64,000 nucleotides of DNA from Candidatus Daviesbacteria bacterium (GTDB lineage: Bacteria > Patescibacteriota > Microgenomatia > Daviesbacterales > UBA10151), in contig JACPDA010000004.1 of NCBI GenBank assembly GCA_016184225.1, positions 409,671 through 473,670 of the forward strand. The letters run 5' to 3'. The notes under the pieces were generated by a model. That model searched no databases. It had not been told where the DNA came from and saw only the letters and a program-made list of their open reading frames with translations. This document shows positions 2,370-29,693 of the stretch, one piece after another. The stretch's first letter is position 1. Each line of letters starts with the position of its first letter. The position numbers were made by a program, and so were the translations under genes.

Positions 2370-3958
2370 ACAAAGTAAAAATACTGTTGATCGCGATTAT
2401 GGTTTTATCCGGAATATTAAGACTATACAAGATTGATAGTGTTCCGCCTTCGCTGTCCTGGGATGAAGTGGCAGTAGGTTACAATGCCTGGACTATTGCC
2501 AGTTTTGGTAAAGACGAGTACGGAAAAACTTTCCCTGCTTTTTTTAAGTCATTCGGTGACGATAAGCACCCTGTTCATATTTATGCAACCGCCCTATCGG
2601 TAAAATTCTTAGATCTTTCAGAATTTAGTACCAGGTTGCCTTCAGCTGTTTTTGGGGTACTGAATGTGATATTAATATTTTTTCTGGTTAGGTTGATGTT
2701 TGCATCTTCAAATTTAGGTCTTATTGCCTCTTTTTTCTTAAGCGTTTCTCCGTATAATATCCATTTTTCCCGGTTTAACCACGAAGCTAATTTTGCACTA
2801 TTTTTTTTCCTGCTGGGACTTACTTTGTTCTACGGAGCAATTAACAGGAACCTGAAATTATTACCTTTGTCTGCTTTAAGTTTGGGAATTGCTTTTATTT
2901 CCTATCATCCCTCTAAAATAGTCGTTCCTTCGGTGGTAATTCTGCTTGTTTTTTTATATGGCAAGCAGTTACTGAAAGATAGGATCGGTTTTTTTGGGGT
3001 TTTGATAGTTGCCATAATTTTTTCTTTTTTAACTGTGTTCAATCTTCAACTATTAGGGATAGCTCGTGTTAACCAAACTTCATTAAATATGGATGAAGTT
3101 AGGAAAACAAGACTTTTTCAATTGACTAATAATGAGATTCTTGGCCGTTTAAACCTTACACTAACCCAATATAGTTGGCATTTCATGCCTGATTATTTAT
3201 TCATTTCCGGAGATAAAAATCCGCGTTTGTCCGATCAAGTCACAGGGCAGTTTTATATACTTGATGCACTTTTTTTGCTGGCGGGTGTTATCTTTTTATT
3301 ATATAAAAGATCTAAATCAGGGATTGTACTCCTAGTTTGGGCGCTTGTTGCACCGCTTCCTTCGGCTTTAGTATCAGAAGCCCCGCATGCGGCAAGAGCA
3401 ATGTTTACAATGGGAAGCTGGCATATGATTTCTGCTTTAGGCTTTTTCTCGCTTTTAAACATAGCATCAAAGCCGTTTCTTAAAAAGGGGATTTTAATAA
3501 CTACAATAATAATTATGCTGTTTTTACTATCCCGTTATTTAACTCACTATTATGGAGAATATGCCAAAAGAAATGCCATTGATTGGCAATACGGGATGAA
3601 GCAGATAGTTGAGTATGTTAAAGATAATACCCAATATTCCCAGGTTTTTATCACTGATGTCAGGTCCCAGCCCTACATATTTTTCCTGTATTATTTAAAA
3701 ATACCTTTGCCTGAATACTTAAGCTCCGTTGTCTATAACCGTTCGGAAGCTACTAAAAGCTTTAATTCCGTGTCTTATTTTGACAGGTATTATTTTGGCG
3801 GTTGGGATCCGATTGGAAGCTCGCCTGAAAAAGGATTTTTATATGTTTTAACTCCCAGCCAATATGATGGTCTGAGGTATAAGTTGGTTTTTCAAGTCAA
3901 AAAAGTTATATACTATCCCAACGGCACACTAGCTTACTATTTAGTGAGTGCAGATTAA
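2366..3958 (+). CDS. GT-C glycosyltransferase, PMT_2/GT39-like. This is the third tandem paralog.
   Basis: SWDEVAVGYNAW...FGDDKHPVHIYAT loop motif. ATGA overlap with the upstream gene. About 12 predicted TM helices. C-terminal DWQYGMKQIVEYV...SQPYIFFLYYLK domain. Confidence 0.75.
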   Translation: MNKVKILLIAIMVLSGILRLYKIDSVPPSLSWDEVAVGYNAWTIASFGKDEYGKTFPAFFKSFGDDKHPVHIYATALSVKFLDLSEFSTRLPSAVFGVLNVILIFFLVRLMFASSNLGLIASFFLSVSPYNIHFSRFNHEANFALFFFLLGLTLFYGAINRNLKLLPLSALSLGIAFISYHPSKIVVPSVVILLVFLYGKQLLKDRIGFFGVLIVAIIFSFLTVFNLQLLGIARVNQTSLNMDEVRKTRLFQLTNNEILGRLNLTLTQYSWHFMPDYLFISGDKNPRLSDQVTGQFYILDALFLLAGVIFLLYKRSKSGIVLLVWALVAPLPSALVSEAPHAARAMFTMGSWHMISALGFFSLLNIASKPFLKKGILITTIIIMLFLLSRYLTHYYGEYAKRNAIDWQYGMKQIVEYVKDNTQYSQVFITDVRSQPYIFFLYYLKIPLPEYLSSVVYNRSEATKSFNSVSYFDRYYFGGWDPIGSSPEKGFLYVLTPSQYDGLRYKLVFQVKKVIYYPNGTLAYYLVSAD

Positions 3959-4721
3959 AAACGTGAATAAAATTTCCGTAGTATTAGCCACATATAACGA
4001 AGAGGACACTTTAGAAAATTGTCTGGAATCAGTAGAGAAGCTGGCAGGTGAGATTGTAATAGTTGACGGTGGATCAACGGACAAAACTTTAGACATTGCC
4101 AGAAAGTTTAAAGCTAAAATTATTCAGACAGATAATCCGCCGATTTTTCATATAAATAAAAACAAGGCAATAGATGCCGCCACGAAGGAATGGATTTTAC
4201 AACTGGATGCTGATGAGGTGGTAACGAAAGATCTTGTAAAGGAAATAAAAAATGTAATTTCATTAGCATCGGATATTAATGGATATTGGATTCCCAGGAA
4301 GAATTTTTTCTTAGGTAAATTCTTAACAAAAGGCGGTCAGTATCCTGATTATACTTTAAGGTTATACCGACGAGGCAAAGGGAGACTGCCTGCAGAAGAT
4401 GTCCATGAGCAGGCAGTAGTGGAAGGTAAGATTAGTTTCTTAAAGTGCGACCTCTTACACTTACGAGATAAGAATTTCTCTAAGTATCTGGAAAGATTTA
4501 ACAGGTATACTGACTTACTGGCTTTACAAATAAAGGTCAGTAGCAACAGGAAGAATATTTTTTCTTCTCTGAATTTCATTTTCATTAAACCAACTATTTG
4601 GTTTTTAAAAGCTTACTTTCGACATAGAGGATATGTTGACGGTTTTCCGGGTTTCATCTTTGCGCTGTTTTCCTCGCTCAGATTTCCCATCTCGTACATA
4701 AAATTTATGATTAACGAATAA
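3948..4721 (+). CDS. GT2 glycosyltransferase (DPM1/GtrB-like polyprenol-phosphate sugar synthase type).
   Basis: ISVVLATYNEE...IVIVDGGSTDKT...LQLDADEV motifs (GT2 DxD). C-terminal hydrophobic tail. The listed start is a GTG at 3948. An alternative GTG at 3963 would avoid overlapping the upstream stop. Confidence 0.75.
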   Translation: MQIKNVNKISVVLATYNEEDTLENCLESVEKLAGEIVIVDGGSTDKTLDIARKFKAKIIQTDNPPIFHINKNKAIDAATKEWILQLDADEVVTKDLVKEIKNVISLASDINGYWIPRKNFFLGKFLTKGGQYPDYTLRLYRRGKGRLPAEDVHEQAVVEGKISFLKCDLLHLRDKNFSKYLERFNRYTDLLALQIKVSSNRKNIFSSLNFIFIKPTIWFLKAYFRHRGYVDGFPGFIFALFSSLRFPISYIKFMINE

Positions 4722-4724
4722 AAT

Positions 4725-5801
4725 ATGAAAGTTGCAATTAATACCCTGCCATTGAAAAGTGCACATAAGTATAGAGGGATAGGATATTACACTGTTAACC
4801 TGCTTGAATCTTTAAAACAGGAGACTTCTATGGACGTCTCTGAGTTTACCAAGCTGACTGATGTAAAAGATGTCGATATAATTCATTATCCTTGGTTTGA
4901 TCTATTTTTTCATACCTTACCAATAAGAAGGTATTTTCCAACAATTGTTACCATCCATGATCTAATCCCTCTCGTTTTTCCTAATCATTACCCGGTAGGA
5001 TTGAAAGGTAAGTTGAACTTCATACTTCAAAAAATAGCATTAAGTAGTTGTAAATATATTATCACCGATTCCAACACATCCAAACAAGATATAGTCAAAT
5101 TTCTAAAAATCAAAAACGAAAGGATTTCAGTAATATCTTTAGCGGCAGATCCGAAATTTAGGGTTTTAAACAATGATACAAAATTACTTCATATTAAAAG
5201 GCAATATCATCTGCCTGAACGTTTTTTGCTTTATGTTGGGGATGCCAACCGGGTTAAGAATCTCCCTTTCCTGATAGAAGGATACAGAGAGCTTTTGAAG
5301 ATTCCGGGTTATTTGGATCTTAAGTTGGTTTTAGTAGGCGGAGTATTTTTAAAACATGTAGAAAATATAGATCATCCGGAGCTTGAAAGCTTAAAGTTAG
5401 TTAATAAATTAATTAAACAATATGGTCTGGATGAAAACATAATTAGACCAGGACAGATTGAAGATGGTGAATTAGTAGCTTTTTATAATTTGGCAACCCT
5501 GTATGTTCAGCCCTCCATCTATGAGGGTTTTGGACTGCCAATTCTGCAGGCATTTGCCTCCGGAACACCGGTTATAGCATCTAATAAAGGGAGCTTGCCG
5601 GAAATTGGGGGACAAGCGGCTGTGTATTTTGATCCAGTTGACATTAGGCAATTTACAATTATAGCCAAAGAATTATTAGAGGATCCTTCATTGTTAAACA
5701 AGTTATCAAAGCTCGGTTTAAAGCGCTCTACTCAATTTTCCTGGAAGAGGGTGGCACGGGAAACAGAGTCAATTTACCTTAAAGCACTTAAGAATGAATA
5801 G
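4725..5801 (+). CDS. GT4 (GT-B fold) glycosyltransferase.
   Basis: C-terminal EGFGLPILQAFASGTPVIASNKGSLPEIGG, the EX7E-type motif of GT1/GT4 enzymes. Confidence 0.75.
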   Translation: MKVAINTLPLKSAHKYRGIGYYTVNLLESLKQETSMDVSEFTKLTDVKDVDIIHYPWFDLFFHTLPIRRYFPTIVTIHDLIPLVFPNHYPVGLKGKLNFILQKIALSSCKYIITDSNTSKQDIVKFLKIKNERISVISLAADPKFRVLNNDTKLLHIKRQYHLPERFLLYVGDANRVKNLPFLIEGYRELLKIPGYLDLKLVLVGGVFLKHVENIDHPELESLKLVNKLIKQYGLDENIIRPGQIEDGELVAFYNLATLYVQPSIYEGFGLPILQAFASGTPVIASNKGSLPEIGGQAAVYFDPVDIRQFTIIAKELLEDPSLLNKLSKLGLKRSTQFSWKRVARETESIYLKALKNE

Positions 5802-6957
5802 TCACATAAATCTTAATTCACCCGTTTTTAAAATCTTGTTGATTTTTCTTACATGGAGATTTTTACTGATACTAATTTTGCTTTTTGCGATCAATTTTGT
5901 TCCTTTGGGGAGTACAGATCGTTTTTTGGGTGGAGGTCCAGTTAACTATTCCATTTCACCGGAGCTTTTTGCTTGGGCAAACTTTGATGGGGAACATTAT
6001 TTATCGATTGCTATATTCGGATATAAAAATCTAGAGCAGGCTTTTTTCCCGGTTTATCCTGCTTTGATAGCATTTTTCGCTAGACCTGATTCTTATAATT
6101 TACTAACTTCTTTGGTTAATTCTACAATTTTAGGTCTTCTTATTTCGAATGTATCTTTCGTACTAGCCTTGATCTTTCTTTGGGAATTGATAAAAATTGA
6201 TTTTTCAAACAAAATTGCATATTGGGTAATAATACTGCTACTTATCTTTCCGACGTCTTTTTATTTTGGATCGGTCTATAACGAATCAGTGTTTCTGCTT
6301 TTGTCCGTGTTGTCATTCTATAATGCCAGAAAAGGCAAGTGGTTTGCAGCAGGATTGCTGGGAGCGGTTGCATCTGCAACCAGGGTTTTCGGCATTTTTC
6401 TTTTACCGGCACTGCTGATAGAAGCCTGGCAACAGAAGGCACCTTATTCCAGATTAATGTGGATTTTCCTAATTCCTTTTGGGCTGGGAGCTTATATGTG
6501 GTATCTGAATACGACCGTAGGCGATGCTCTTGCTTTCTATCACTTTCAGGGATTAGTCGGCGAGCAGCACCAGCCAGGTATAACATTATTGCCACAAGTA
6601 TACTTTCGTTATATAAAAATGTTTGCAACAACCAGTATGCAGAATCCGATCTTTCAAACATTAATACTGGAGTTTACCATAGGTTTACTTTTTTTCTTCC
6701 TTCCGATTTACGGATACTTTAAGAAAATTAGATTATCATATGTCCTATACGCCATGGTGGGATTCCTGGTGCCGGCGATACAGGGTAGCTTTTCATCGTC
6801 CCCGCGTTATGTGATAATTTTATTTCCTGCGTTTTTAGCCGCCGCTTTATTAGTTAATAGTTTGCCAAAAATAGTTAAAACTCTGATAATACTTTTGTCT
6901 TTTTCTGTTTTTCTGATAGAAGCAGCTCTATTTTTAAGGGGGTACTGGGTAGCATGA
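5794..6957 (+). CDS. Polytopic membrane protein, possibly a DUF2029/PIG-V-like GT-C mannosyltransferase.
   Basis: About 10 hydrophobic helices. ANFDGEHYLSIAIFGYKN...FFPVYPALIAF resembles the first-loop region of GT87/PIG-V-like membrane glycosyltransferases. The assignment is tentative. Confidence 0.4.
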   Translation: MNSHINLNSPVFKILLIFLTWRFLLILILLFAINFVPLGSTDRFLGGGPVNYSISPELFAWANFDGEHYLSIAIFGYKNLEQAFFPVYPALIAFFARPDSYNLLTSLVNSTILGLLISNVSFVLALIFLWELIKIDFSNKIAYWVIILLLIFPTSFYFGSVYNESVFLLLSVLSFYNARKGKWFAAGLLGAVASATRVFGIFLLPALLIEAWQQKAPYSRLMWIFLIPFGLGAYMWYLNTTVGDALAFYHFQGLVGEQHQPGITLLPQVYFRYIKMFATTSMQNPIFQTLILEFTIGLLFFFLPIYGYFKKIRLSYVLYAMVGFLVPAIQGSFSSSPRYVIILFPAFLAAALLVNSLPKIVKTLIILLSFSVFLIEAALFLRGYWVA

Positions 6958-8267
6958 AAAAAAGAGTATACGAATTAATCAAACACCCATTGTTTTCAGG
7001 CAGCATGGTTATGATAATCGGTTCCAATGTCATTAGTTTTTTAAATTATTTATACCATCTCATAATGGTTAGATTATTAGCTCCACCCAGCTATGGAGAA
7101 TTGGTAGCACTGTTTTCTCTAATTGGGTTTTTGGGGATATTGTCCTCTTCTTTAAATTTGGTAGTAACTAAATTTGTTTCAGCGGCAAAAAATAACTTGG
7201 AAATAAGTAGTATTGTAAGCTGGCTTAATTCTAAAATCTTCATCTTTTCTTTAGCAGTTTTTCTATTAATTACTTTTTTATCCCCCATTATTTCTTCTTT
7301 TTTAAAAATAGAAAATAATTTATTAATTATTTTAATTGCCTTGCCTTCTCTTTTAGGATTGGCATCTCTGCTTTACAAATCGGTTCTTCAGGGGCTCTTA
7401 AGGTTTCAGCAGATGATTTTAAGTGTCTTTGTCGAAAACGGATTAAAGCTGATATTAGGGGTTATCCTGGTATATGCAGGATTTTCAGTAGGCGGGGCTG
7501 TAGCGGGTTTAGTGATTGCCTCATTTATAGGCTTTTTTCTGTCAAGATTTTTTATCCGCAATTTCCTGAAAGCATCAGAGGAAAAACCTAACATTAAATC
7601 AATGTTTTTGTACTCTTTTCCTGTAACAGTTCAATACCTATCGATAACGTCTCTTTTCTCTTCCGATATACTTCTAATTAAACATTTTTTCTCTCCTCAT
7701 GATGCCGGCATCTACGCAATAATTTCAACACTGGGAAAGATTATTCTTTTCGGAACAGGGCCTATTGGAGCGGTAATGTTCCCGCTTGTATCCCAGAGAC
7801 AGGCAAGGGGTGATAATTATAAGCGCATTTTTTTCTTGAGCTTCATTTTGACTTTTACCTTGGCCGTTTTGATTCTTCTAATTTATTGGTTCATTCCGGA
7901 GCAGGTGATTAATCTTCTTAATCCTTCATATCTGGAAGCGGCACCTCTTTTAGTTTGGTACGGAATCTTTATAACATTTTTTACCCTTAGTTCGCTCTTT
8001 ATAAGTTATTATCTTTCTTTAAATAGAGTATCTGTTGTTATTTTACCGTTTATTGCGGCGGTAGCGCAAATTATCGGGATATGGTTTTTTCATCGTAGTT
8101 TATTCGAAGTAATTCTGGTTTCTTCTATAGTGGCTGGCATGCTGCTTGTACTTTTGTTAATATATTCAGCATATGGAAGCAAACTTGGTGTCGGTGATAG
8201 TGCCGGCATACAAACAAGAAAAAACAATAGCCAGAGATTTAAGGAGGATGAAGGAAGTTTTAGATAA
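6954..8267 (+). CDS. Wzx-like oligosaccharide flippase (MOP/polysaccharide biosynthesis protein family).
   Basis: 12-14 TM helices. The N-terminal region (SGSMVMIIGSNVISFLNYLYHLIMVRLLAPPSYGELVALFSLIGFL) is typical of Wzx/RfbX flippases. Confidence 0.65.
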   Translation: MKKRVYELIKHPLFSGSMVMIIGSNVISFLNYLYHLIMVRLLAPPSYGELVALFSLIGFLGILSSSLNLVVTKFVSAAKNNLEISSIVSWLNSKIFIFSLAVFLLITFLSPIISSFLKIENNLLIILIALPSLLGLASLLYKSVLQGLLRFQQMILSVFVENGLKLILGVILVYAGFSVGGAVAGLVIASFIGFFLSRFFIRNFLKASEEKPNIKSMFLYSFPVTVQYLSITSLFSSDILLIKHFFSPHDAGIYAIISTLGKIILFGTGPIGAVMFPLVSQRQARGDNYKRIFFLSFILTFTLAVLILLIYWFIPEQVINLLNPSYLEAAPLLVWYGIFITFFTLSSLFISYYLSLNRVSVVILPFIAAVAQIIGIWFFHRSLFEVILVSSIVAGMLLVLLLIYSAYGSKLGVGDSAGIQTRKNNSQRFKEDEGSFR

Positions 8268-8979
8268 ACTTCGTTATCCTACAGAGTTAATTTGTGTAGT
8301 TGACGGTAATGTTGATGCTACCTTCAGAAAAGCTTCCGTGTTTGCTAATAAGAACCCAAATGTAAGAGTAATTGGATATGATCATAATAAAGGTAAAGGA
8401 TATGCCATCAGATTCGGTATGGCAGCAAGTAAGGGAGATATTGTCGGGTTTATTGACGCGGGTATGGATTTGAATCCAAACGGACTATTTATGCTGCTGG
8501 AGCACTTTGAATGGTATAACGCAGATATAATAGTAGGATCTAAAAGGCATCCCGTATCTAAGGTGCATTATCCTTGGCAAAGGAAAGTGCTTTCCATGGG
8601 TTACCAGCTTTTGGTTTTGACCCTCTTTGGTTTAAAAGTACGTGATACCCAAGTCGGTATGAAATTTTTCAAAAGGGAGGTTTTAGAAAAGGTATTACCC
8701 AGACTTTTGGTAAAGGCTTTTGCTTTTGATGTAGAAATATTAGCTGTAGCAAATTACCTGAAATATAATAGAATTTATGAAGCGCCTGTAGAGATTAAGT
8801 TAAGATTTGGCGGGACATCAACAGTGACAAGCCAGAAATTTATCAGGACAGTTTTAGCAATGCTTACAGATACATTAGCAATATTCTATAGATTAAAAAT
8901 ATTAAATTATTATTCCGATAAAAATCACAGAAGATGGAAATTTGATCCGGAACTAAATTTTAGGGTAAACGTCGGATGA
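8173..8979 (+). CDS. GT2 glycosyltransferase, DPM1/GtrB-like.
   Basis: VSVIVPAYKQE...ICVVDGNVD...FIDAGMD plus C-terminal FAFDVEILAVA (GtrB/DPM1-like). The ORF overlaps the 3' end of the flippase gene by 95 nt. Confidence 0.7.
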   Translation: MEANLVSVIVPAYKQEKTIARDLRRMKEVLDKLRYPTELICVVDGNVDATFRKASVFANKNPNVRVIGYDHNKGKGYAIRFGMAASKGDIVGFIDAGMDLNPNGLFMLLEHFEWYNADIIVGSKRHPVSKVHYPWQRKVLSMGYQLLVLTLFGLKVRDTQVGMKFFKREVLEKVLPRLLVKAFAFDVEILAVANYLKYNRIYEAPVEIKLRFGGTSTVTSQKFIRTVLAMLTDTLAIFYRLKILNYYSDKNHRRWKFDPELNFRVNVG

Positions 8980-10103
8980 ATATATTAATTTTTTCCTGGA
9001 GAGGGCCCGGTCATCCAAATGCCGGGGGGGCAGAAATTTCTACCCATGAACATGCAAAAGGATGGGTTAAAGCAGGCCATCAGGTTACCTTATTTACCTC
9101 TTATTACCATGGGGCAAAAAGGGAAGAAAAAATAGACGGAGTAACCATCATAAGGGAAGGACGTCAATTTATAGAAGTTCAACTAAAAGCTTTTAAGTGG
9201 TTTTTATTTGCAAAGCACCCTGAATTTGATCTGGTTGTTGATGAATTCCATGGAATTCCCTTTTTTACGCCGCTCTATGTAAGAGATAAGAAACTTGCCT
9301 TTATTCACGAGGTAACCGGGGAGGTATGGGGATTAAATCCCTGGAGCCGCCCTTTTAACCTGATACCTAAAGTATTAGGTCCTATCTTTGAACCGCTAAT
9401 TTTTAAACTGTTTTATAAAAAGATTCCGTTTATGACGGTTTCAGAATCTACCAAAAAAGACCTGATTAATTTCGGGATACCTGGAAAATGCATCACCGTT
9501 ATCAATAACGGATTCGATAAGTATAATACAGAAAATAATTTGTCTAAAGAAAAGAAAAAAACAGTTATTTTTCTGGGAGCCTTAGCAAAAGATAAGGGTA
9601 TAGAAGAAGCCTTAAAAACTTTTTCTATTTTAAGCCGATCAGGAGGTAACTTTCAGTTTTGGATAGTTGGTAAATCTGATCCGAAATATTTACAATTTTT
9701 GAAAAGACAAAGTCATAGATTAAACATAAATACAAAAGTAAGGTTTTGGGGGTTTGTCTCGCAAAAGGAAAAGTTCAGACTCCTCAAAAGATCCCATGTT
9801 CTAATTCATCCTGCTATTCGGGAGGGGTGGGGGCTGGTAGTGATAGAAGCGGCAAGTGTAGGAACCCCGACTGTGGCATTTAATGTACCCGGTCTTCGCG
9901 ATTCCGTCATTCATGATAAAACCGGAATCATTTGTAAAGATCAATCCCCGGAGTCATTAGCGAAAGCGATAATTAACCTTTTGCAAGGCAGTGTAAAATA
10001 TAAGGAGATGAGTCGAAGTGCGATTTCCTGGAGCAAAAACTTCTCTTGGGAAAAAGCTACGAAATCAAGTTTGAAATTAATTGAAGAAGTGGTAAACTAC
10101 TGA
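8976..10103 (+). CDS. GT4 (GT-B) glycosyltransferase.
   Basis: N-terminal GGAEIST..WVKAGHQVTLFT and C-terminal REGWGLVVIEAASVGTPTVAFNVPGLRD (EX7E). ATGA overlap with the upstream gene. Confidence 0.75.
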   Translation: MNILIFSWRGPGHPNAGGAEISTHEHAKGWVKAGHQVTLFTSYYHGAKREEKIDGVTIIREGRQFIEVQLKAFKWFLFAKHPEFDLVVDEFHGIPFFTPLYVRDKKLAFIHEVTGEVWGLNPWSRPFNLIPKVLGPIFEPLIFKLFYKKIPFMTVSESTKKDLINFGIPGKCITVINNGFDKYNTENNLSKEKKKTVIFLGALAKDKGIEEALKTFSILSRSGGNFQFWIVGKSDPKYLQFLKRQSHRLNINTKVRFWGFVSQKEKFRLLKRSHVLIHPAIREGWGLVVIEAASVGTPTVAFNVPGLRDSVIHDKTGIICKDQSPESLAKAIINLLQGSVKYKEMSRSAISWSKNFSWEKATKSSLKLIEEVVNY

Positions 10104-10105
10104 TA

Positions 10106-11083
10106 ATGAAAAAAACGAAAAAGGTTGTCATTACCGGAGCGGGCGGGTTTGTTGGTCACCATTTGGTTTCTTTTTTGAAAAAGAAGGGTTACTGGGTGCG
10201 CGGAGTTGACATAAAACATCCTGAATATAAATCTACCGATGCAGATGAATTTTTGAAATTGGATTTAAGGGAGAAAAAAAATGCTTTAAAAGCAACAGAG
10301 GGAATGGATCATGTTTACGCCTTGGCAGCTGATATGGGCGGAATGGGTTTTATTTCCAAAAATCATGCAACTATTCTTTATAATAATGCAACTATTAACC
10401 TCAACACCATTGAGGCGGCAAGAATCAATAAAGTCGGTAGGTATTTTTATTCATCTTCAGCATGTATTTATCCGGAATACCGCCAGATCAAATCAAAACT
10501 GAAACCTTTGAAGGAAGAAGATGCTTTTCCGGCACAACCACAAGATGCTTACGGTTGGGAAAAATTAGTAACTGAAATTCTGGCCAAATACTATCATGAG
10601 GAGCATGGTTTAGAGACACGTATTGCCCGTTTCCATAATATCTTTGGCCCATATGGAACATGGGATGGAGGTAGGGAAAAAGCGCCTGCAGCGATCTGCA
10701 GAAAAGTTGCCATAGCAAAGCTAACAGGCAAAAAGGAGATAGAAATTTGGGGAGACGGAAAGCAAACAAGATCTTTTTGTTATATTGATGATTGTTTAAA
10801 CGGCATCTATAAATTGATGATGTCTGACTTTAGAGAGCCACTTAATATCGGTCAGGATAGAATGGTAACAATAGATCAATTAGTAGATATAGTCTCAAAG
10901 ACTGCAGGTGTAAACTTTAAGAAAAAGCATATTCCCGGACCTCAAGGGGTCAGGGGGAGAAATTCAGATAACACAAAGCTTCGCGAGACCCTGAAATGGG
11001 AACCTGAAATTTCTTTGGAAGAGGGGCTTGCAAGAACCTATCAGTGGATAGAAGAGCAGGTAAAAACTAAAAACAAAAATTAA
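10106..11083 (+). CDS. GDP-mannose 3,5-epimerase (GME)-like NAD-dependent epimerase.
   Basis: Extended SDR with the GAGGFVGHH Rossmann motif. Long colinear similarity to plant GME: SSSACIYPE, AQPQDAYGWEKLVTE, RIARFHNIFGPYGTWDGGREKAPAA, GDGKQTRSFCYIDDC, SDFREPLNIG and HIPGPQGVRGRNSDN all match GME signature blocks as I recall them. Confidence 0.75.
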   Translation: MKKTKKVVITGAGGFVGHHLVSFLKKKGYWVRGVDIKHPEYKSTDADEFLKLDLREKKNALKATEGMDHVYALAADMGGMGFISKNHATILYNNATINLNTIEAARINKVGRYFYSSSACIYPEYRQIKSKLKPLKEEDAFPAQPQDAYGWEKLVTEILAKYYHEEHGLETRIARFHNIFGPYGTWDGGREKAPAAICRKVAIAKLTGKKEIEIWGDGKQTRSFCYIDDCLNGIYKLMMSDFREPLNIGQDRMVTIDQLVDIVSKTAGVNFKKKHIPGPQGVRGRNSDNTKLRETLKWEPEISLEEGLARTYQWIEEQVKTKNKN

Positions 11084-13404
11084 TGCTTCTGTTTTTATTT
11101 TATCTTATTCCTATTTTACTCTCAGGAATAATTCTCCTTCGAAAGATCAGTACGATAAATAGATTTGAATTATTAATTCCGGCAGGAAGTATTTTGGGTT
11201 TTGCAATATTTACCTTTTCTTTAAACCTTGTCTCGTTTTTACTAAAAGGACCGATTGGGATCATAACTGCTTACCTTTTAGTAATTAGCCTAGGATTTAC
11301 GGCATTTAAGTCTGTCAGATCAGAAACTTGGCATGTTGATTTCCCCAGAGGCAAACAGTTAACCTTTTGGCTCCTCAGTATTTTAGTTTGGGGGCTTTTT
11401 ATATATTGGAAGTCAGCCTATGCGCTTATAGGAAGCGATACCAATCTTTATTACGGCATTGCCCATTCTTTTATAAAAGGGAATTTTCCCTTTCTAACAC
11501 CCTGGCAGCCGGATATTCCGTTAGCATACCATGCTGGAGCGCCGGAACTGCTGGGCGCATTTTATTATTTTTCTAATTTAGATTTTCAGTTTTTGCATTT
11601 ATTCTTTTCGGGTCTTTTTATTTTCTTTGCTGCGCAGATAATTATTTGGATCATTCAAAGGCATGAGACGGTAGCTAGTTTCTTATTGGCCAACCTTGCG
11701 GCTACAGTAACTTTCGTTAGCTTTGGTTTTATTTATATAACTTGGCCTGTTTTTCCAATACAATTATCTGAGTTAGGAAGCGTTAATCAGTTAGTTTTAT
11801 GGCTGAGGAATCTTCCGACTGTAGCTTCCGCAATTGAAGTATATGGTGCGCCTATTAATCTGGATGCTTTAATTTATTTTATCTTCCATGCTTATGGGCT
11901 GGTAATCTTTTTGTCTTTGTTGGTATTACTGTTGTACAACAGAAAAGATAAACCCTTAATGGGATGGGTTTTGATTTGTACTGGTTTAGCTTCCTTAGCA
12001 TTGGTTAATGAATCTATGTTTATGGCAGCTTTTCCTGCTTTAGTTGGGGGAATATTTTTAACCGAACTGAGAGAAAAAAGGGTGTTAAAAAGTTTAAGAG
12101 TTTTAACCCTGCTTTTAGTATTGACTATTCTTGTGGTCTTTTTCCAGGGAGGCATTATCTCTGCTTCGCTAAGCAATCCCCGAGGCATACAAAGATCTAC
12201 CGTAATATTCCCCAAAAAGGAAGATGTTAAAGAAGATTTTAGAAGCTATCATTTAGGTCAGATATCATCCAAGTTATTGCCTGATAAACTAGAGTGGTTG
12301 CCCTTAAGATGGTTTCATCCGGGAGCTTATTTTTTACTGGTATTTTCTGTGGTGGCAATTATTATAGCCAGAAGTAAGCCTTATTCAGTCTTGCTAAAAG
12401 CTTTATTTATAGCAGGTATTTTTTCCTTAATAGCATATAATGCTATAGTCCCCAAATTTTTAGTTGCCAACGGAAACAGGTTTTTATCTACCTCGTTTTT
12501 ATTTTTTTCTTTGATTTTGTGTATATCATTAATTCCGCTTTTTGAAAAAATTAAAAGTTTAGTTAAGAAGATACTATTTTTCTTGCTTTTAGGGTGGGTT
12601 TTTATCCCCACGATTTTGCCGCCTCTGGCACTTCTTACAAAACAAAGGTTTGGCGAGAATAAATTAATTCCTAAATACCAACAAAGTAGTGACGGGATAT
12701 CATGGCTTAAAAGGAATGTAAATTTAAGTGAAAGGGTACTAGTGTTGGATAAAAACTCTCCCCATCCCAGCGGCCAAGAGAGGGCTTTAGTAGAAGCAGG
12801 AGCATTTGCGCCCCTATTTTCCGGAAATTTCAGAGCTTTTACAATTGAAGCTTCTCCCGAATATGTTGATATTGCTTATAGCTTAAGTCCAAATAGTCTG
12901 AAAAAACTGAAAGTAAATATCCTGCTGGTGGATAATATCTTTTTTGAATCCTTGCCCGAAAGGAGAAAGCAGCAACTGCAAGATGAAACATATTTCGAAA
13001 AGGTTTTCGATAATTCAAAACCTAGCAATTGGGAAAAAATTTACAGAATTAAAGATAAATATCTAGAAAGTGGCGGTGAGTTGGATGGCACCCTTGAGCA
13101 ATTATTACGAGTTTTACCCACTCGAGGAAAAATATATATTGATAATGAGAAAAATTTCAACCCTTCCTTTTTAAGGAGGCCGCTTATTTTCAGTTTAAGA
13201 GATAGAGATATCTATTACTTACCTCAGTCAGGCGTTTATCTGAATGTCGAGGCGAATATAAATTCTCACCCTCCAAGAAAGGAAAGAGATTATGATTATT
13301 TAATTTTAGGGAAAAATACAAATCCGGAAGAAGAATGCAACTGCCAAACTAAACTTTTATGGCAGGGAATTAGGAATGAGATTTATGTTTGGAGAAAGAT
13401 TTAA
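11083..13404 (+). CDS. Large polytopic membrane protein (773 aa) with a C-terminal soluble domain. Function unknown, possibly a glycan-processing membrane enzyme.
   Basis: About 14 hydrophobic segments in the first 520 aa followed by a hydrophilic C-terminal domain of about 250 aa. No recognisable catalytic motif. Confidence 0.45.
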   Translation: MLLFLFYLIPILLSGIILLRKISTINRFELLIPAGSILGFAIFTFSLNLVSFLLKGPIGIITAYLLVISLGFTAFKSVRSETWHVDFPRGKQLTFWLLSILVWGLFIYWKSAYALIGSDTNLYYGIAHSFIKGNFPFLTPWQPDIPLAYHAGAPELLGAFYYFSNLDFQFLHLFFSGLFIFFAAQIIIWIIQRHETVASFLLANLAATVTFVSFGFIYITWPVFPIQLSELGSVNQLVLWLRNLPTVASAIEVYGAPINLDALIYFIFHAYGLVIFLSLLVLLLYNRKDKPLMGWVLICTGLASLALVNESMFMAAFPALVGGIFLTELREKRVLKSLRVLTLLLVLTILVVFFQGGIISASLSNPRGIQRSTVIFPKKEDVKEDFRSYHLGQISSKLLPDKLEWLPLRWFHPGAYFLLVFSVVAIIIARSKPYSVLLKALFIAGIFSLIAYNAIVPKFLVANGNRFLSTSFLFFSLILCISLIPLFEKIKSLVKKILFFLLLGWVFIPTILPPLALLTKQRFGENKLIPKYQQSSDGISWLKRNVNLSERVLVLDKNSPHPSGQERALVEAGAFAPLFSGNFRAFTIEASPEYVDIAYSLSPNSLKKLKVNILLVDNIFFESLPERRKQQLQDETYFEKVFDNSKPSNWEKIYRIKDKYLESGGELDGTLEQLLRVLPTRGKIYIDNEKNFNPSFLRRPLIFSLRDRDIYYLPQSGVYLNVEANINSHPPRKERDYDYLILGKNTNPEEECNCQTKLLWQGIRNEIYVWRKI

Positions 13405-14131
13405 GGCTTAAGGTATGGAATTTCGGTAAGTCACTAAAGTATACTTTTGTTACCGCCTTTAGAACATTAAACCCGTCCTGGAGGGCTCTTATACCCGATG
13501 CTCCACCCACTCTTTTTGTATAAGTAATAGGGATTTGTACAAGATTCATATCCATCTTGACAGCCTTTACAACAGTCTCGGCTTCATATTCAAAATGCCT
13601 TTCCCTTAAGTCCAAAGTCAAAAATGCCTCTTTCCTGAATCCCTTAAAGCCGGCCATTACATCAGTGATTTTTCTGCCGCAAGCAAGCGATGTGGCGAAA
13701 GACATTGCCCAGTTACCAAACAGGTTGCGAAAACTAACAGAACCTTTCTCTATTTTTCCTTCTCCTTGGAATCTGGTCCCGATTACCACATCCGCCCCTT
13801 TATCTAAGGCGTCAACAAAAAGAGGTATCTCATGCGGTTGAAATTGATGGTCAGTATCAATTTGAATGATATAATCACCTGTGGCTAGGAGTCCTCCCGC
13901 CCAAAAATCCGCTCCTTTACCCCGCTTGAAGGGAAACCGGATTATCTTGTCCACGCGCATTTTCTTGGCTATTTCTATAGTTTTATCTTTTGATGCGGCA
14001 TCAACAACGATAATCTCTATGGGAAAAAATTTCCTTAACTTCTGGCAATCCTTAATTGTTCTGCCAATATTTTTTTCCTCATTGTAAGAGGTAAGAATAA
14101 TACTGACTAACTTTTTGCTTTTCTTGTTCAT
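13370..14131 (-). CDS. GT2 glycosyltransferase, DPM1-like polyprenol-phosphate mannosyl/glucosyltransferase.
   Basis: LVSIILTSYNEEKNI...IIVVDAASKDKT...IQIDTDHQ...ITDVMAGFKGF motifs typical of Dpm1/PpmC-like GT2. Confidence 0.75.
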   Translation of the reverse strand: MNKKSKKLVSIILTSYNEEKNIGRTIKDCQKLRKFFPIEIIVVDAASKDKTIEIAKKMRVDKIIRFPFKRGKGADFWAGGLLATGDYIIQIDTDHQFQPHEIPLFVDALDKGADVVIGTRFQGEGKIEKGSVSFRNLFGNWAMSFATSLACGRKITDVMAGFKGFRKEAFLTLDLRERHFEYEAETVVKAVKMDMNLVQIPITYTKRVGGASGIRALQDGFNVLKAVTKVYFSDLPKFHTLSLKSFSKHKSHS

Positions 14132-18274: not shown

Positions 18275-19148
18275 CCAAATCTTCTATTATTTCCTCCCAG
18301 CTTCTGAATTTCATCCCTAACTTTTTTTCAGTTTGTTCAACTTTTAATCCGCCGAATTGAGGATATCTTGACTGGTTATCTTTCAGAAACGGTTCGATAC
18401 TGACAGGTTTGACGACATCCTTTTTGCCCCTGGCTCTTTCTATCAGTAGATTTGCTAATTTATGTGGTGTAAAGAGATTAGAACTGGAAGCATGAAAAAT
18501 TCCGATTGGTCTTTTATGCAACATAACTTCTAAAGTTTCTGTTACTTCATTAATATAAGTCAATGTTAAATATTGGTCGTTAAACATTGGATAGAGTTTG
18601 CCACTGTCATATAAGGTTAGGATCTTTCTCACATAATCAGATTTTAATTCATAATTGCTTCTTACCGGATTAGAAATTCGTAAGATGGCAAAGTTTTTGA
18701 TATTATTTATAATCTGTCTTTCAGCTTCCCTTTTTGTCCATCCATACCACGATAACAGATCAGGATTTTCTTCCGGAGTTTCATCTTCTGAGTAAGGTCC
18801 CGGATTTTCTTTACTGCCGGAGAAAATGACATCCGTAGAGATTGCAATGAAAAAAGTATCAGGATTTAGGGATCGGATCAAATTAGTTGTTCCTTCTACA
18901 TTTACTATCCAGCACGGTGCATTTTTATTATTTCGCTGTTCCTCAGCTTTAGATACGTCAGTAAAAGCTGCAAAATGAATAACAGTATCCGGATCATGCA
19001 TTTTAAAGAAATCCTTTACGGATTTTAGGTTTGTAATATCCAGTTCGTCTTGGGAAGGAGATAAAATAACAATGTTCTTGCTTGATTGATAATTTTCAAC
19101 AAAGTGTGATCCTACTAATCCATTGCTACCGGTAACAAGTATCTTCAT
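18255..19148 (-). CDS. RmlD-like NAD(P)-dependent sugar reductase/epimerase (dTDP-4-dehydrorhamnose reductase family).
   Basis: MKILVTGSNGLVGSH, DPDTVIHFAAFTDV, ISTDVIFSG and YGWTK (YxxxK) follow the RmlD substrate-binding-domain pattern. Confidence 0.6.
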   Translation of the reverse strand: MKILVTGSNGLVGSHFVENYQSSKNIVILSPSQDELDITNLKSVKDFFKMHDPDTVIHFAAFTDVSKAEEQRNNKNAPCWIVNVEGTTNLIRSLNPDTFFIAISTDVIFSGSKENPGPYSEDETPEENPDLLSWYGWTKREAERQIINNIKNFAILRISNPVRSNYELKSDYVRKILTLYDSGKLYPMFNDQYLTLTYINEVTETLEVMLHKRPIGIFHASSSNLFTPHKLANLLIERARGKKDVVKPVSIEPFLKDNQSRYPQFGGLKVEQTEKKLGMKFRSWEEIIEDLATQLSA

Positions 19149-19894
19149 ATATTTTGTAATGGCTTTTTAAAGAGTTCTGTTACAAATCCCATTCTAGCCA
19201 GAATGTAAAACAGCAATATCTTGAATGTGCCCAATGAGTATTTTATACTATTTTTTAAACTGGCCCCCCTTTTGTTACCGGTGTAACTAGTTTCTACAGG
19301 AACTTGGGATACCTTAATTCCGTGATAAACGGCTTGTGCAATTAATTCAAAACTAAATAAATAGTTATTGGAATTTACTTCATAATTGATTTTTTTCAGC
19401 ATTTTCTTAGTATATACTCGGAAGCCCTGATGGAAATCATCTAAATCAACTCTTAGTATTATTTTATCAATAAAGTTTAAGGTTCTGATAGGAATCCATT
19501 TCCAAAAATACATCCCGCTTCGGAGGGGATTATCTAAGGAGGTGAAACGGTTACCCAGAACAAACTCTGATCCAGCTTTAATTTCTTTTAGCGCCTGTGG
19601 GATAGCCGATGTTTTATATTCTCCATCAGGATGAATGTCAATGATTATTTCTGCCCCACTTTCAATAGCCAAATTCAAGGCTCTTTTCATATTTCCTCCA
19701 TAACCTAAGTTAAGAGGGTTTTTATACGAAGTAATCTTTATTTTTTTTGCAAGCTCAAATGTATTATCTTTTGATGCATCATCAACCAAAATGATCTCAT
19801 CTACAAGTTTTTTGGGAAAATTTTTGTAAAATTTTTCCAGAGTTTTAGCTGCATTATAAGCTATAAATACGGCGACTATCTTTCTCTTTTTCAT
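19145..19894 (-). CDS. GT2 glycosyltransferase (DPM1-like).
   Basis: IVAVFIAYNAAKTLE...IILVDDASKDNT...IIDIHPDGE. The listed ORF runs to 20008, but the internal ATG (MKKRKIVAVF) at 19894 removes the head-to-head overlap with the divergent gene at 19917. Confidence 0.7.
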   Translation of the reverse strand: MKKRKIVAVFIAYNAAKTLEKFYKNFPKKLVDEIILVDDASKDNTFELAKKIKITSYKNPLNLGYGGNMKRALNLAIESGAEIIIDIHPDGEYKTSAIPQALKEIKAGSEFVLGNRFTSLDNPLRSGMYFWKWIPIRTLNFIDKIILRVDLDDFHQGFRVYTKKMLKKINYEVNSNNYLFSFELIAQAVYHGIKVSQVPVETSYTGNKRGASLKNSIKYSLGTFKILLFYILARMGFVTELFKKPLQNI

Positions 19895-19916
19895 CTGATA
19901 TATTATATTAGCTTCT

Positions 19917-21737
19917 ATGACTAACTTAAAGACTCTTTTGATCTTTTTATTGACCGCTGTCCTGATTATATTTTTGGGATTCGATTTTCTGAAACCGGCA
20001 TTTGACATAGGTCTTACACCGGAAGATCGGGAATTTATTTTGCGTTACAAATTAATTGGTCAAAACCCTCTTACTAAGATATTGCAGTTTTGGTCAGAAC
20101 GCGGCGCTTATACCACTATTCCGATCTATTATATTGGAATAGTGCAAAGCATAGCAGGTTTTAACTATCAACTTATTCAGTTTATTGGTATGGTGCTTAG
20201 AGTTCTTGCTGCTTTATCAATTTTTCCTTTAACAAACCTTCTTTTTAAAAATATGCCACTCGCCTTTCTTGCAACAATCATATTCGCCTTTAGCTACACA
20301 ACTACAGGGGCGCTGGAAACAGGCGTTGAACCCAGTGAATATTTGGGTCTCTTTGTAATGAATATATTTTTAATTGCTTATTATTTTCTCAATACCAAAT
20401 ATTTTTTAAATATTTGGTGGTTACTTTTAACATCTCTTCTACTATTTGTTGCCGTAATGGCATCAATAATGAGGGTATATCCCATTTTATTTTTTATACC
20501 TATGGTTGAGATTTTTTTACTATTTTCAAACCGCAAGAAATACAAATTTAAGTACCTATTTTACAAACTTTTTATTTTCTATTTGCCTTTTTTTCTTCTT
20601 GTTCGTTTTTCACCTTCTGCAACCTCAGGTCATTTTTCGCTTCCCACAATTTTATTAAAAATCGCTCAGGGTAATTGGCATTTGTTACTAATCCCTTTTC
20701 AGGGATTAGGTTTTATGATACCGGTATATATGGCGTTTTTATTGGGAGGTCCATTGATTATATTTGGTTTAATGAGTTTAATGTTGTCTCTTGTTTGTAC
20801 TACACAGAAACTGCCCTTTTTTCTTAGGGTATTACTTTTGAATTTTGGCCTTGAAACATTAGCATACTGGATAATACAACGAAGATTATTGTCGCCTGTG
20901 GAGCTAAGGATGAATTTTGATGCCGCACATCTCTACCCGATTTTATTCGGCTTATTCATTTTTTCTCTTATGATAAATTCTTTGATTGATTGGTATAGAA
21001 GTGGTAAAAAGAATAATCTACTTTTTATACTGTGGATGGGACCTTTCATAGGATTATTTTTTATAACTATGACCTACATCTTCGCTGGTATAAATCTTTC
21101 TTTCGGAGGTGCACAAGATCATTATCTTCTGATACCAACAATAGGGATAAGTCTTTTTATAAGCGGGATATTGCTGGCAATGTATGAAAGATTGTCGGTT
21201 ACGCGATTTAAATCTATCGGGGGTTTTGCAGTTGTGGTAATTATACTTGCGTTCCTTTATGGGCTCAATAGAGAAAAGACTCACAGCTACTTCACGGGTG
21301 CAAATTATAACGGAAGAGCAGCAGCGGGTCAGGAATTTCTTCAGGGTAAGATAAGAGAAATATTTAGGAATTTGGATTATTCTAAACCAGTATTAGTTTA
21401 TTTTGATACTTCTGATATACCTGATGGAAAGGGCCCTTTTTATTCCGAAGGACTACTAACACCATTTCCAGTTTTGATGTATTTTAGAGGAGAGAATATA
21501 GTTAATGGTTGCATTGGAGTTATTTATGAGAATAGAAAAATGAAGAAGTTGAAAAAAGCTATTAAAATAATTGGTAATCAGCAGGCCATAGTTTATCAGA
21601 CTACATGTGTTGAAAATGGGAAAATAAATATTCAGGATGTTATTTATAAGGCCGATAATTTCTATGCATTGAAAATTAAAGATGAAAATCTTATTAATAT
21701 TAAGGATCAGGTAATTAAGGAATTAAAATTTAGATGA
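19917..21737 (+). CDS. Member 1 of a six-gene paralogous family of polytopic membrane proteins. Putative novel GT-C-like glycosyltransferase.
   Basis: TM1, then DIGLTPEDREF...ERGAYTT loop, about 12 TM helices, then a soluble C-terminal domain with VYFDTSD...GC(I/V)GVIYE...FYALKIKD..LINIKD. See the family finding. Confidence 0.55.
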   Translation: MTNLKTLLIFLLTAVLIIFLGFDFLKPAFDIGLTPEDREFILRYKLIGQNPLTKILQFWSERGAYTTIPIYYIGIVQSIAGFNYQLIQFIGMVLRVLAALSIFPLTNLLFKNMPLAFLATIIFAFSYTTTGALETGVEPSEYLGLFVMNIFLIAYYFLNTKYFLNIWWLLLTSLLLFVAVMASIMRVYPILFFIPMVEIFLLFSNRKKYKFKYLFYKLFIFYLPFFLLVRFSPSATSGHFSLPTILLKIAQGNWHLLLIPFQGLGFMIPVYMAFLLGGPLIIFGLMSLMLSLVCTTQKLPFFLRVLLLNFGLETLAYWIIQRRLLSPVELRMNFDAAHLYPILFGLFIFSLMINSLIDWYRSGKKNNLLFILWMGPFIGLFFITMTYIFAGINLSFGGAQDHYLLIPTIGISLFISGILLAMYERLSVTRFKSIGGFAVVVIILAFLYGLNREKTHSYFTGANYNGRAAAGQEFLQGKIREIFRNLDYSKPVLVYFDTSDIPDGKGPFYSEGLLTPFPVLMYFRGENIVNGCIGVIYENRKMKKLKKAIKIIGNQQAIVYQTTCVENGKINIQDVIYKADNFYALKIKDENLINIKDQVIKELKFR

Positions 21738-25337: not shown

Positions 25338-25357
25338 GTTTAGATAATACTTGAGAT

Positions 25358-27145: not shown

Positions 27146-27154
27146 TTTTAATTT

Positions 27155-28303: not shown

Positions 28304-28983
28304 GCTATTAATTCCTGGTAAAACAACTTTAACTGGTCCAGGCCTGTTTTAAGTGAGGGAAATGTGCTTTTCCCATAGACCCTTTTTCCTTCTTTAGTCG
28401 GGAATTCCGTTATTTTAACACCGGTCTTTAATGCCCTGATTATCTGTTGATAGTCTGATGCATTCGGGGGCGGGATTTTTATCCTTAATTTTTCATAAGC
28501 CTTCCGTGCGAAAGCGCGGTAACCCTGCGTAGGATCTGTGCATTTGTTGCCTCCTCTTCCCCATACAATAGTTGCGATAAGTCCCATTCCCTGACAAAAC
28601 CACTTACGCGGCTTCAAGAGCTGGTCATCCTCTTCATTATATCCATCTTTTCCCATTCTTCCGGCAATGATGAATTCAAACCCCTCTTTAAGCAGCTTAA
28701 CAAATTTTTTAAGATCATAAGGTTCCATATTTCCGTCCGGGTGAAAAAATATTAAGGTATCTTCTTTTGTGTTTCTCCAGGCAGATTCGTATGCTCCGCC
28801 CACCCCTTTATATTTTTGCGGGAAGACCTCTATACCTTTACTTTTCCAAAATTCCTGAGTTCCGTCTGAAGAATTTGCATCAATGACATATATCTTATCC
28901 ACTAAATTTTTAGGGATCCTGCCGAATATTTTTTCCGAATTTCTCCGCTCGTTCTTGGTAAAGATTATCAGTGCAATTTTCAT
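28300..28983 (-). CDS. GT2 glycosyltransferase (DPM1-like, short form).
   Basis: MKIALIIFTKNE...VIDANSSDGT...FFHPDGN GT2 motifs. ATGA overlap with the RGP-like gene. Confidence 0.75.
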   Translation of the reverse strand: MKIALIIFTKNERRNSEKIFGRIPKNLVDKIYVIDANSSDGTQEFWKSKGIEVFPQKYKGVGGAYESAWRNTKEDTLIFFHPDGNMEPYDLKKFVKLLKEGFEFIIAGRMGKDGYNEEDDQLLKPRKWFCQGMGLIATIVWGRGGNKCTDPTQGYRAFARKAYEKLRIKIPPPNASDYQQIIRALKTGVKITEFPTKEGKRVYGKSTFPSLKTGLDQLKLFYQELIA

Positions 28984-28991
28984 TCCATGAT

Positions 28992-29675: not shown

Positions 29676-29693
29676 TCGTGGTATTTTCCAATT

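Follow-up and report, generated by a model that had tools for sequence, protein, structure and literature searches.

Two large 'hypothetical proteins' from a surface-glycan gene cluster of Daviesbacteria (Patescibacteria/CPR), here called A and B, are now read as outward-facing membrane glycosyltransferases. They very probably belong to the GT-C superfamily, look unrelated to each other and would work by a lipid-donor mechanism. Most likely, both decorate the cell surface with sugars taken from lipid-linked donors, which would most likely be polyprenyl-phosphate sugars. B was placed in the AftD branch. For A, a family was defined that appears nearest to the oligosaccharyltransferases (OSTs), with a testable candidate catalytic core (D119, H150, E310 and R466). 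The window (the whole stretch of DNA that was analysed, ~64 kb) consists almost entirely of glycan-synthesis genes. The genes needed for the argument are the following:

6954..8267, + strand: flippase of the MOP/Wzx family, in the same operon as A (Pfam Polysacc_synt, E 5e-17)
11083..13404, + strand: gene A, predicted GT-C-fold membrane glycosyltransferase, 773 aa, with no existing family model
13370..14131, - strand: GT2 glycosyltransferase, 253 aa, convergent with A, whose 3' end it overlaps (Pfam Glycos_transf_2, E 1.4e-27)
50932..53631, + strand: gene B, predicted compact AftD-like GT-C glycosyltransferase, 899 aa

Both ORFs were present at the positions and lengths given in the initial annotation. 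A and B are real conserved genes and not chance ORFs: database searches returned 92 homologues of A and 100 of B, with identities down to ~22-36%, and a profile search of 1.84 billion cluster representatives with A picked up 320 proteins. The AlphaFold models of both proteins were confident. Gene A is the last of 10 genes in a + strand operon (942..13404). Its ATG shares bases with the stop codon of the epimerase gene before it (TAATG), and A is translationally coupled to the operon containing the Wzx flippase. The frame of B is open from a TTG at 50875; the ATG at 50932 was taken as the start because it fits the length of a 100%-identical NCBI homologue (899 aa).

Neither protein passed curated family thresholds, and scans of A and B against Pfam and NCBIfam (E up to 1) returned zero matches. 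The initial annotation had called both 'of unknown family'. This is true of A, whose family is small, lacks an existing model and is present in Daviesbacteria and other Patescibacteria. For B it is only nominally so. The genome scan for A used exact peptide patterns, and hence only 10 close loci were found. Ten distant A relatives proved to have no cluster names on look-up.

Since CPR bacteria live attached to other cells and their genomes are tiny, surface glycans probably play a central part in the way they live. To our knowledge, almost nothing is known about how these glycans are made, and our literature search brought up no study of GT-C enzymes or OSTs in CPR/Patescibacteria. The present assignment gives ~320 related cluster representatives a basis for annotation and biochemistry a starting point. 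It adds no new principle, as it is already well established that a GT2, a flippase and a GT-C enzyme together carry out glycosylation outside the cytoplasm.

Topology and candidate active sites

AlphaFold helices and hydropathy gave 14 membrane helices for A, with the N-terminus outside, and 12 for B, comprising 11 helices and one C-terminal anchor. The initial annotation had expected more than 12 in each, which holds for A and was slightly overstated for B. In both proteins, lysine and arginine were about four to five times denser in the loops predicted to be inside: 21 of 58 residues inside against 14 of 184 outside in A, and 14 of 45 against 12 of 155 in B. By the positive-inside rule, residues 521-773 of A and 411-865 of B are predicted to be extracytoplasmic, as had been proposed for the large domains. 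The main parts of the two proteins are:

11419..11583, + strand: A residues 113-167, conserved loop after TM4, predicted outside, matching GT-C EL1
12010..12012, + strand: A E310, almost invariant acid in the outside turn TM8-TM9 (E in 59 of 60 sequences)
12478..12480, + strand: A R466, in the outside loop TM12-TM13, motif NGNRF (from conservation and hhalign)
12643..13401, + strand: A residues 521-773, alpha/beta C-terminal domain resembling the soluble domains of OSTs and AftD
51007..51036, + strand: B residues 26-35, GGGDEGLQFY in the translation, first outside loop directly after TM1
52012..52029, + strand: B residues 361-366, invariant RNPFEK in an outside loop
52162..53526, + strand: B residues 411-865, predicted extracytoplasmic domain with an alpha/beta soluble part and CBM-like beta-sandwiches
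53527..53589, + strand: B residues 866-886, lone C-terminal membrane anchor helix; a basic cytoplasmic tail comes after it

Conservation in A was scored over a wide family of 60 sequences. The loop 113-167 carries the motif GSD119TNLYY..A127..G133N.P136..W141QPD144..Y149H150.G152. D119 is a candidate catalytic acid, judged by its conservation in 56 of the 60 members, with E in 2 more. P136 was kept in 60/60 and H150 in 59/60. R466 was R in 59 members and K in the remaining one, and is a candidate ligand of the lipid phosphate. Together with E310, these are the widely conserved polar residues of the membrane region (D119, H150, E310, R466), and all lie on predicted outside loops.

In B, the GGGDEGLQFY motif follows TM1 directly, as the initial annotation had noted. 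All 34 family members have E or D at position 29, which makes D29 a candidate catalytic acid; the same motif occurs as G.GE.GLPFYNP in longer B relatives carrying PF11847. Within RNPFEK, the residues R, N, P, E and K were each invariant in all 34 members and also in 13 longer relatives. The cytoplasmic tail, RYVGSIKNAKKDN, contains 4 K/R.

B had been described as GT-C-like, and this was borne out for both proteins. The multi-helix membrane domain of A has the GT-C arrangement, with an acidic residue (D119) in an extracytoplasmic loop, and both proteins combine a GT-C fold, an acid in the first outside loop and a large outside domain. The acidic loop of A comes after TM4, whereas canonical GT-C enzymes have it after TM1.

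B as a compact relative of AftD

The closest known relative of B is mycobacterial AftD, arabinofuranosyltransferase D (PF11847, GT-C_AftD/DUF3367; PDB 6W98 and 6WBX). The Pfam model was matched by 17 of 34 B-family members (best E 4.9e-9) and is present in the precomputed annotation of longer B homologues; B itself gave no match at E up to 1. B has the AftD-like three-dimensional structure of a GT-C membrane module and a soluble GT-C domain, with carbohydrate-binding beta-sandwich modules in its outside domain. It is a pared-down AftD, in which 11 membrane helices and one anchor helix are combined with the soluble GT-C domain and CBM-like beta-sandwiches. The beta-sandwiches probably hold a polysaccharide acceptor.

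The differences from AftD are considerable. B has 899 aa, against 1413-1438 aa for the AftD chains in the PDB; the identity is 15%, and B falls below Pfam detection. The acyl carrier protein (ACP)-binding C-terminal helix bundle of AftD is absent from B, which ends in a single anchor helix, and the CBM modules are apparently fewer. We know of no arabinogalactan in CPR bacteria.

The essential residues of AftD are K39, D41, E251, K361 and D474. Plausible counterparts in B are the acid at position 29, RNPFEK (361-366) and D474; RNPFEK may match the essential K361. PDB profile searches with the B family and with the longer B relatives gave nothing significant (AftD appeared at E 0.3 over 64 residues), and the archaeal DUF3367 protein P0097 had no PDB match, so the comparison does not extend to a residue-level alignment of B and AftD.

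The initial annotation had placed both proteins in a 'YfhO/AftD-like class'. The AftD part applies to B, while A lies nearest to STT3/PglB/AglB and then ArnT. Membership of YfhO was rejected: PF09586 was unmatched by A, B and both families. One B homologue is named 'YfhO family protein' in NCBI.

A and the oligosaccharyltransferases

Fold and profile comparisons point to the STT3/PglB/AglB oligosaccharyltransferases (Pfam PF02516, which we take to be CAZy GT66) as the nearest known relatives of A, followed by ArnT. In the Foldseek search with A, the top four matches were catalytic subunits of OSTs (E 5e-5 to 2e-4), and ArnT came next. A has the fold of the OST C-terminal globular domain, and in the fold comparison this domain matched that of AglB. 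A membrane core and a C-terminal alpha/beta domain make up the overall build of both A and the OSTs. A-family and wide A-family profiles gave nothing significant against PDB sequences.

The alignment of the A-family profile with PglB (hhalign) reached a probability of 92.2% (E 6e-7, 315 columns) and covered PglB from its first external loop as far as the region around R375. As controls, the A profile was compared with eight other window proteins (two PMT_2, a PIG-V-like protein, two paralogues of the six-member family, a 511-aa unknown, B and the Wzx flippase), and the probability was <5% every time. The B profile against PglB gave 0.3%. In the alignment, R466 of A (NGNRF) pairs with the arginine of PglB GGLRF, presumably R372 in C. 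jejuni and R375 in C. lari in our own residue numbering, and the QP[DN]..Y stretch of A aligns with PglB HQPNDLSY. From manual register alone, we infer that D119 would correspond to D54/D56 of PglB; the spacing from D to G is 14 residues in both.

The motifs of canonical OSTs were missing. The WWDYG pattern W[WYF]D[YFW]G was found in none of the 60 A-family sequences, and the position that we judge equivalent reads VLVLD556 in A. In the hhalign alignment, the second DxD (PglB YYDTD) lies opposite a gap in A, and the EL5 glutamate of TIXE/SVSE (PglB TIQE) has no conserved acid as its counterpart. PF02516 was unmatched by A, by 38 close relatives (E up to 1) and by 60 wide-family relatives (E up to 0.01). 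OSTs have 13 helices and the N-terminus inside, whereas A has 14 and the N-terminus outside, with three extra helices before the catalytic loop. A canonical OST identity was rejected on the absence of WWDYG, the second DxD, TIXE and PF02516.

As A lost or never had the Asn-glycosylation motifs, its acceptor most likely differs from Asn. Most likely, A transfers to a surface glycan or a protein hydroxyl group, with an acceptor unlike that of OSTs. A may be a Patescibacteria-restricted offshoot of STT3/PglB/AglB that kept the core, the lipid-phosphate arginine and the C-terminal domain and in which H150, E310 and D596 replaced WWDYG, the second DxD and TIXE; we put this forward as a tentative reading. 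If true, this would make A a novel type of enzyme that derives from OSTs, acts on a new acceptor and may take part in CPR protein glycosylation.

It is unlikely that A is still a true OST, moving a preassembled glycan as one block from polyprenyl diphosphate onto a protein (e.g. of an S-layer or pilus) with a recognition unlike WWDYG. The missing WWDYG-like motif, second DxD, TIXE glutamate and PF02516 match count against it, as does the gene context (see the following section).

Membership of PMT_2 was also rejected; A has no PMT_2 Pfam match. An ArnT Pfam match is likewise absent, and the C-terminal domain of A is much larger than in ArnT/GtrC systems. DUF2298 (PF10060), a group of uncharacterised membrane proteins, was weakly matched by two distant A relatives, P0313 and P0330 (E 4e-4 and 1e-5, below the gathering score). 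At E 0.01 or better, 1 of the 60 wide-family members matched it; A itself did not.

Gene neighbourhood and the proposed lipid donor

The best NCBIfam matches of the GT2 at 13370..14131 were AglJ (1.7e-34), dolichyl-phosphate hexose transferase (7e-22), PpgS and ArnC, all under the equivalog cut-offs (119.6 bits, where 325 would be required). With a score so far below, the role of the GT2 as a candidate polyprenyl-phosphate sugar synthase making the donor of A is no more than a best guess. Of 10 distinct related loci examined, 8 have an AglJ-like GT2 directly downstream of A. A further Daviesbacteria genome has homologues of B and A side by side with a GT2. Across related loci, the GT2 keeps 80-92% identity, whereas A falls to 49-58%. 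A conserved donor synthase with a variable GT-C enzyme is the pattern of Gtr systems, and the identity contrast would fit such a pairing. A GT2 that resembles a monosaccharide-lipid synthase and is conserved next to A separates A from the OSTs and argues against transfer of a glycan from polyprenyl diphosphate. Moreover, the screen of window genes, which covered all but three ORFs at the 3' end (56847..58175, 58383..59600 and 62496..63773), turned up no initiating phosphoglycosyltransferase. Two candidates for this role were rejected: 55897..56574 looks like a methyltransferase and 59610..60548 like a GT2.

In the preferred mechanism with polyprenyl-phosphate sugars, a cytoplasmic GT2 of the AglJ/DPM1/ArnC type would transfer a sugar from a nucleotide sugar to polyprenyl phosphate, the lipid-linked sugar would be flipped to the outer membrane face, and the GT-C enzyme would pass it to an extracellular acceptor. 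D119 of A and D29 of B, the acids of the first outside loop, would serve to activate the acceptor, and the lipid phosphate would be held by the basic residues R466 of A and R361/K366 of B.

ArnT/GtrC-type systems likewise join a GT-C enzyme to a flippase and to a GT2 that makes the polyprenyl-phosphate sugar. They differ from the window in their small flippase of the GtrA or ArnE/F type, in place of which the window has a MOP/Wzx protein only. No GtrA-type flippase was found in the window, and there is no room for such a gene since ORFs of 150 aa or more fill 97.7% of it. The MOP/Wzx protein at 6954..8267 is the only flippase candidate within the 64 kb. The three-component logic is documented, as is a MOP-superfamily flippase that serves a polyprenyl-phosphate sugar (PMC11127046).

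The initial annotation had suggested that A and B may be polymerases or transferases. The cluster has a Wzx flippase and no recognised Wzy, which leaves some room for glycan polymerases or ligases (Wzy, WaaL, SEDS-like) acting on diphosphate-linked repeat units. We consider this highly improbable for A and/or B, and a SEDS/Wzy-type polymerase reading was rejected. Both proteins remain unmatched by curated enzyme families, as transporters or non-enzymatic structural membrane proteins might be, but such a role is scarcely credible: Foldseek matches to transporters had a probability of 0.08 or less and TM-scores of ~0.1, the invariant acidic and basic residues group on outside loops in the manner of GT-C active sites, and the gene context is solely glycan biosynthesis. 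A transporter assignment, which the initial annotation had named as speaking against its own view, was thus rejected for both proteins.

The window holds 13 candidates for large polytopic glycan-type membrane proteins and one Wzx flippase, in line with the earlier count of at least 11. The NCBIfam matches of the flanking dehydrogenase and SDR genes were generic, and no donor sugar could be derived from them. As a lead only towards arabinofuranosyl transfer by B from decaprenyl-phosphoryl-arabinose, an RGP-family (UDP-arabinopyranose mutase-like) gene occurs in the window together with the AglJ-like GT2.

Genes and family assignment

Both open reading frames were present as given in the initial annotation.

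11083..13404, + strand: gene of protein A, 773 aa, ATG start
50932..53631, + strand: gene of protein B, 899 aa from ATG 50932, within an open frame running from TTG 50875 to 53631

For B, the ATG at 50932 agrees with the length of its database counterpart (899 aa, 100% identity). A and B are 100% identical to HYU45_02480 and HYU45_02650, respectively (Candidatus Daviesbacteria, Patescibacteria/CPR). A word-indexed search returned 92 homologues of A and 100 of B. The A profile matched 320 proteins at E ≤ 1e-3 among 1.84 billion cluster representatives, meaning that the A family is small.

Pfam and NCBIfam scans of A and B gave no match at E up to 1, and profiles of the two families found no solved structure by sequence. 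When relatives were scanned singly against Pfam, 17 of 34 B relatives matched PF11847 GT-C_AftD (best E 4.9e-9) and 3 of 34 matched PTPS_related. None of 38 close A relatives had a credible Pfam match, and in the wide A family only one of 60 matched, namely DUF2298 below threshold. These member-by-member scans set A and B apart from each other. The part common to their profiles was the start of the soluble domains only (hhalign probability 88%). Within the known AftD family, B is a new and distant member. A represents a family without an existing model, from Daviesbacteria and other Patescibacteria; its nearest relatives are the oligosaccharyltransferases (OSTs), whose defining motifs are missing.

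Protein A and the oligosaccharyltransferases

Both proteins had been put forward as possible polymerases or transferases of the YfhO/AftD-like class, with a GT-C-like character. The GT-C fold held for both, and both AlphaFold models were confident (A: pLDDT 89.8, pTM 0.91; B: pLDDT 87.6, pTM 0.83). B proved AftD-like, but A does not fall in the AftD/YfhO class. The top four Foldseek matches of A were OST catalytic subunits (yeast Stt3 twice, PglB and canine STT3A), all full-length with E 5e-5 to 2e-4. ArnT followed at E 0.02, and transporter matches had a probability ≤0.08. The TM-scores were low (0.29–0.40), so the A–OST relationship is distant.

Profile comparison gave the same neighbour. 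The PglB query was a Campylobacter jejuni sequence with 99% identity to database PglB. It matched C. lari PglB structures at E 2e-265, and for the C-terminal domain of C. jejuni PglB the match had E 3e-186. The wide A profile of 60 sequences reached an hhalign probability of 79% against the single PglB sequence and 92.2% against a 16-sequence PglB profile (E 6e-7, 315 columns; A 129–490 vs PglB 57–392). As controls, the A profile was compared with two PMT_2 proteins of the window, its PIG-V-like protein, two members of a six-paralogue membrane protein family, a 511-aa protein, B and the Wzx flippase; each scored <5%, and the B profile scored 0.3% against PglB. The low scores in both control sets argue that the A–PglB match is specific.

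The alignment places the nearly invariant A R466 (NGNRF) on PglB R372, equivalent to C. lari R375 (GGLRF), an arginine in contact with the lipid diphosphate. It also places WQPD..YH of A on HQPNDLSY of PglB. The OST-specific marks are nevertheless absent: a WWDYG-like motif was found in 0 of 60 wide family members, PglB YYDTD falls in an alignment gap, and no conserved residue of A is aligned with the TIXE glutamate.

Conserved residues of A among 60 relatives (identity down to 17%)
D119: D in 56, E in 2
G133: 58
P136: 60
Q142: 52
P143: 55
Y149: 56
H150: 59
G152: 57
E310: 59
R466: R in 59, K in 1
G573: 59
D596: 52
P603: 55
F638: 57

The claim of more than 12 TM helices in each protein holds for A, which has 14 by its AlphaFold helices with the N-terminus outside, but not for B, which has 12 (11 plus an anchor) with the N-terminus inside. 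The large domains had also been placed outside the cytoplasm, and the distribution of K/R in the predicted loops agrees: 21 in 58 inside residues and 14 in 184 outside residues (loops ≤60 residues) for A, and 14 in 45 inside and 12 in 155 outside for B. On this predicted topology, D119, H150, E310, R466 and the 254-residue C-terminal domain of A would all lie on the outer side, where the active site of a GT-C enzyme is expected. In canonical GT-C enzymes, the acidic loop follows TM1, whereas in A it follows TM4, meaning three extra N-terminal helices. In the outside domain of A, C752 and C754 (13336..13344) form a C-x-C motif, a candidate disulfide or metal site, whose invariance is limited to close relatives.

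Protein B and AftD

In its predicted structure, B is a compact AftD that combines a GT-C membrane module with a soluble GT-C domain and CBM-like beta-sandwiches and has one anchor helix at the C-terminus. AftD carries an acyl carrier protein-binding helix bundle (bioRxiv 10.1101/2019.12.22.885152), which B lacks. The topology prediction places a 455-residue domain outside and the basic C-terminal tail inside. The GGGDEGLQFY motif is encoded at 51007..51036, and residue 29 of B is acidic in all 34 members. RNPFEK (361–366) is conserved and D474 is present in 33 of 34. C560 (52609..52611) and C577 (52660..52662) in the outside domain are kept in 34 of 34 and are a candidate disulfide or metal site. 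G.GE.GLPFYNP and RNPFEK are also present in PF11847-bearing relatives of 1,100–1,200 aa.

Gene context, related loci and proposed mechanism

ORFs of at least 150 aa cover 97.7% of the window, and among the ORFs screened almost every one is a glycan gene. They comprise PMT_2 paralogues, a PIG-V-like protein, a Wzx flippase, GT2 and GT4 glycosyltransferases, sugar epimerases and dehydrogenases, C-methyltransferases, a carbamoyltransferase and an RGP-family protein. At least 11 large polytopic glycan-type membrane proteins had been claimed; we counted 13 candidate large GT-C-type genes. A is the last gene of a 10-gene operon with overlapping genes (942..13404), and its start overlaps the stop codon of an epimerase gene.

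13370..14131, − strand: 253-aa GT2, convergent with the 3′ end of A
19145..20008, − strand: AglJ/PpgS-like GT2, adjoining a GT-C-like six-paralogue member
28300..28983, − strand: AglJ-like GT2, adjoining and overlapping the RGP-like gene
27155..28303, − strand: Pfam RGP (reversibly glycosylated polypeptide, UDP-arabinopyranose mutase family), E 2e-20
19917..31695 and 60587..62485: six paralogues, 579–632 aa, about 9–12 TM, no Pfam match

The best NCBIfam matches of the 253-aa GT2 were AglJ, dolichyl-phosphate hexose transferase, PpgS and ArnC, all under the equivalog cut-offs. All three GT2s are akin to AglJ, PpgS or dolichyl-phosphate hexose synthase. Two of them adjoin GT-C-like membrane genes (A and a six-paralogue member) and the third adjoins the RGP-like gene, an arrangement that suggests several parallel donor-synthase/transferase pairs. 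Together, the RGP-like gene and the GT2 overlapping it could allow a CPR bacterium to make lipid-linked arabinofuranose, a donor that would fit AftD-like enzymes. At an hhalign probability of 79%, the six-paralogue profile shows a weak link to TM2–TM5 of the B/AftD-like family.

The pairing of A with the adjacent GT2 was kept in 8 of the 10 distinct related loci examined, with identities of 80–92% for the GT2 and 49–85% for A. In L003–L013, compared with 11083..14131, A was 49–58% identical where the GT2 was 80–87% and the second epimerase 76–85% identical. Hence, A changes much faster than its neighbour genes. Gtr systems likewise pair a conserved GT2 with a fast-evolving GT-C. In GCA_028715175.1 (Daviesbacteria; L015, 6001..12072), homologues of B (44% identity) and A (29%; 783 aa) form an uninterrupted row with a GT2, all on one strand, which suggests that the two families work together. 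The genome records of several loci with A homologues (L005, L006, L012, L013 and L014) are titled 'uncultured Gammaproteobacteria ... binchicken'; their genes and gene order are Daviesbacteria-like and the taxon label is probably wrong.

The gene arrangement is that of the multi-component extracytoplasmic glycosylation systems already described (PMC11127046, PMC8035078), and a MOP-superfamily flippase is documented in the flipping role (PMC11127046). Given this precedent, and since no GtrA-type gene was found in the window, the Wzx of the operon is a reasonable flippase candidate. In the proposed mechanism, a GT2 would put the sugar on polyprenyl phosphate, the flippase would carry the lipid-linked sugar across the membrane and the GT-C enzyme would transfer it on the outside. 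The CBM-like modules predicted in B point to a polysaccharide acceptor, and the OST-like build of A makes a protein acceptor possible.

Two further products had no Pfam or NCBIfam match at E up to 0.001: 41711..43246 (− strand; 511 aa, ~8 TM), which could be the polymerase or ligase that the cluster is missing, and 34467..35948 (− strand; 493 aa, soluble). The ORF at 96..935 (+ strand) shares 32–33% identity with the C-terminal half of each of the two PMT_2 proteins encoded at 942..2369 and 2366..3958 and is probably a third PMT_2 paralogue, truncated by the window start.
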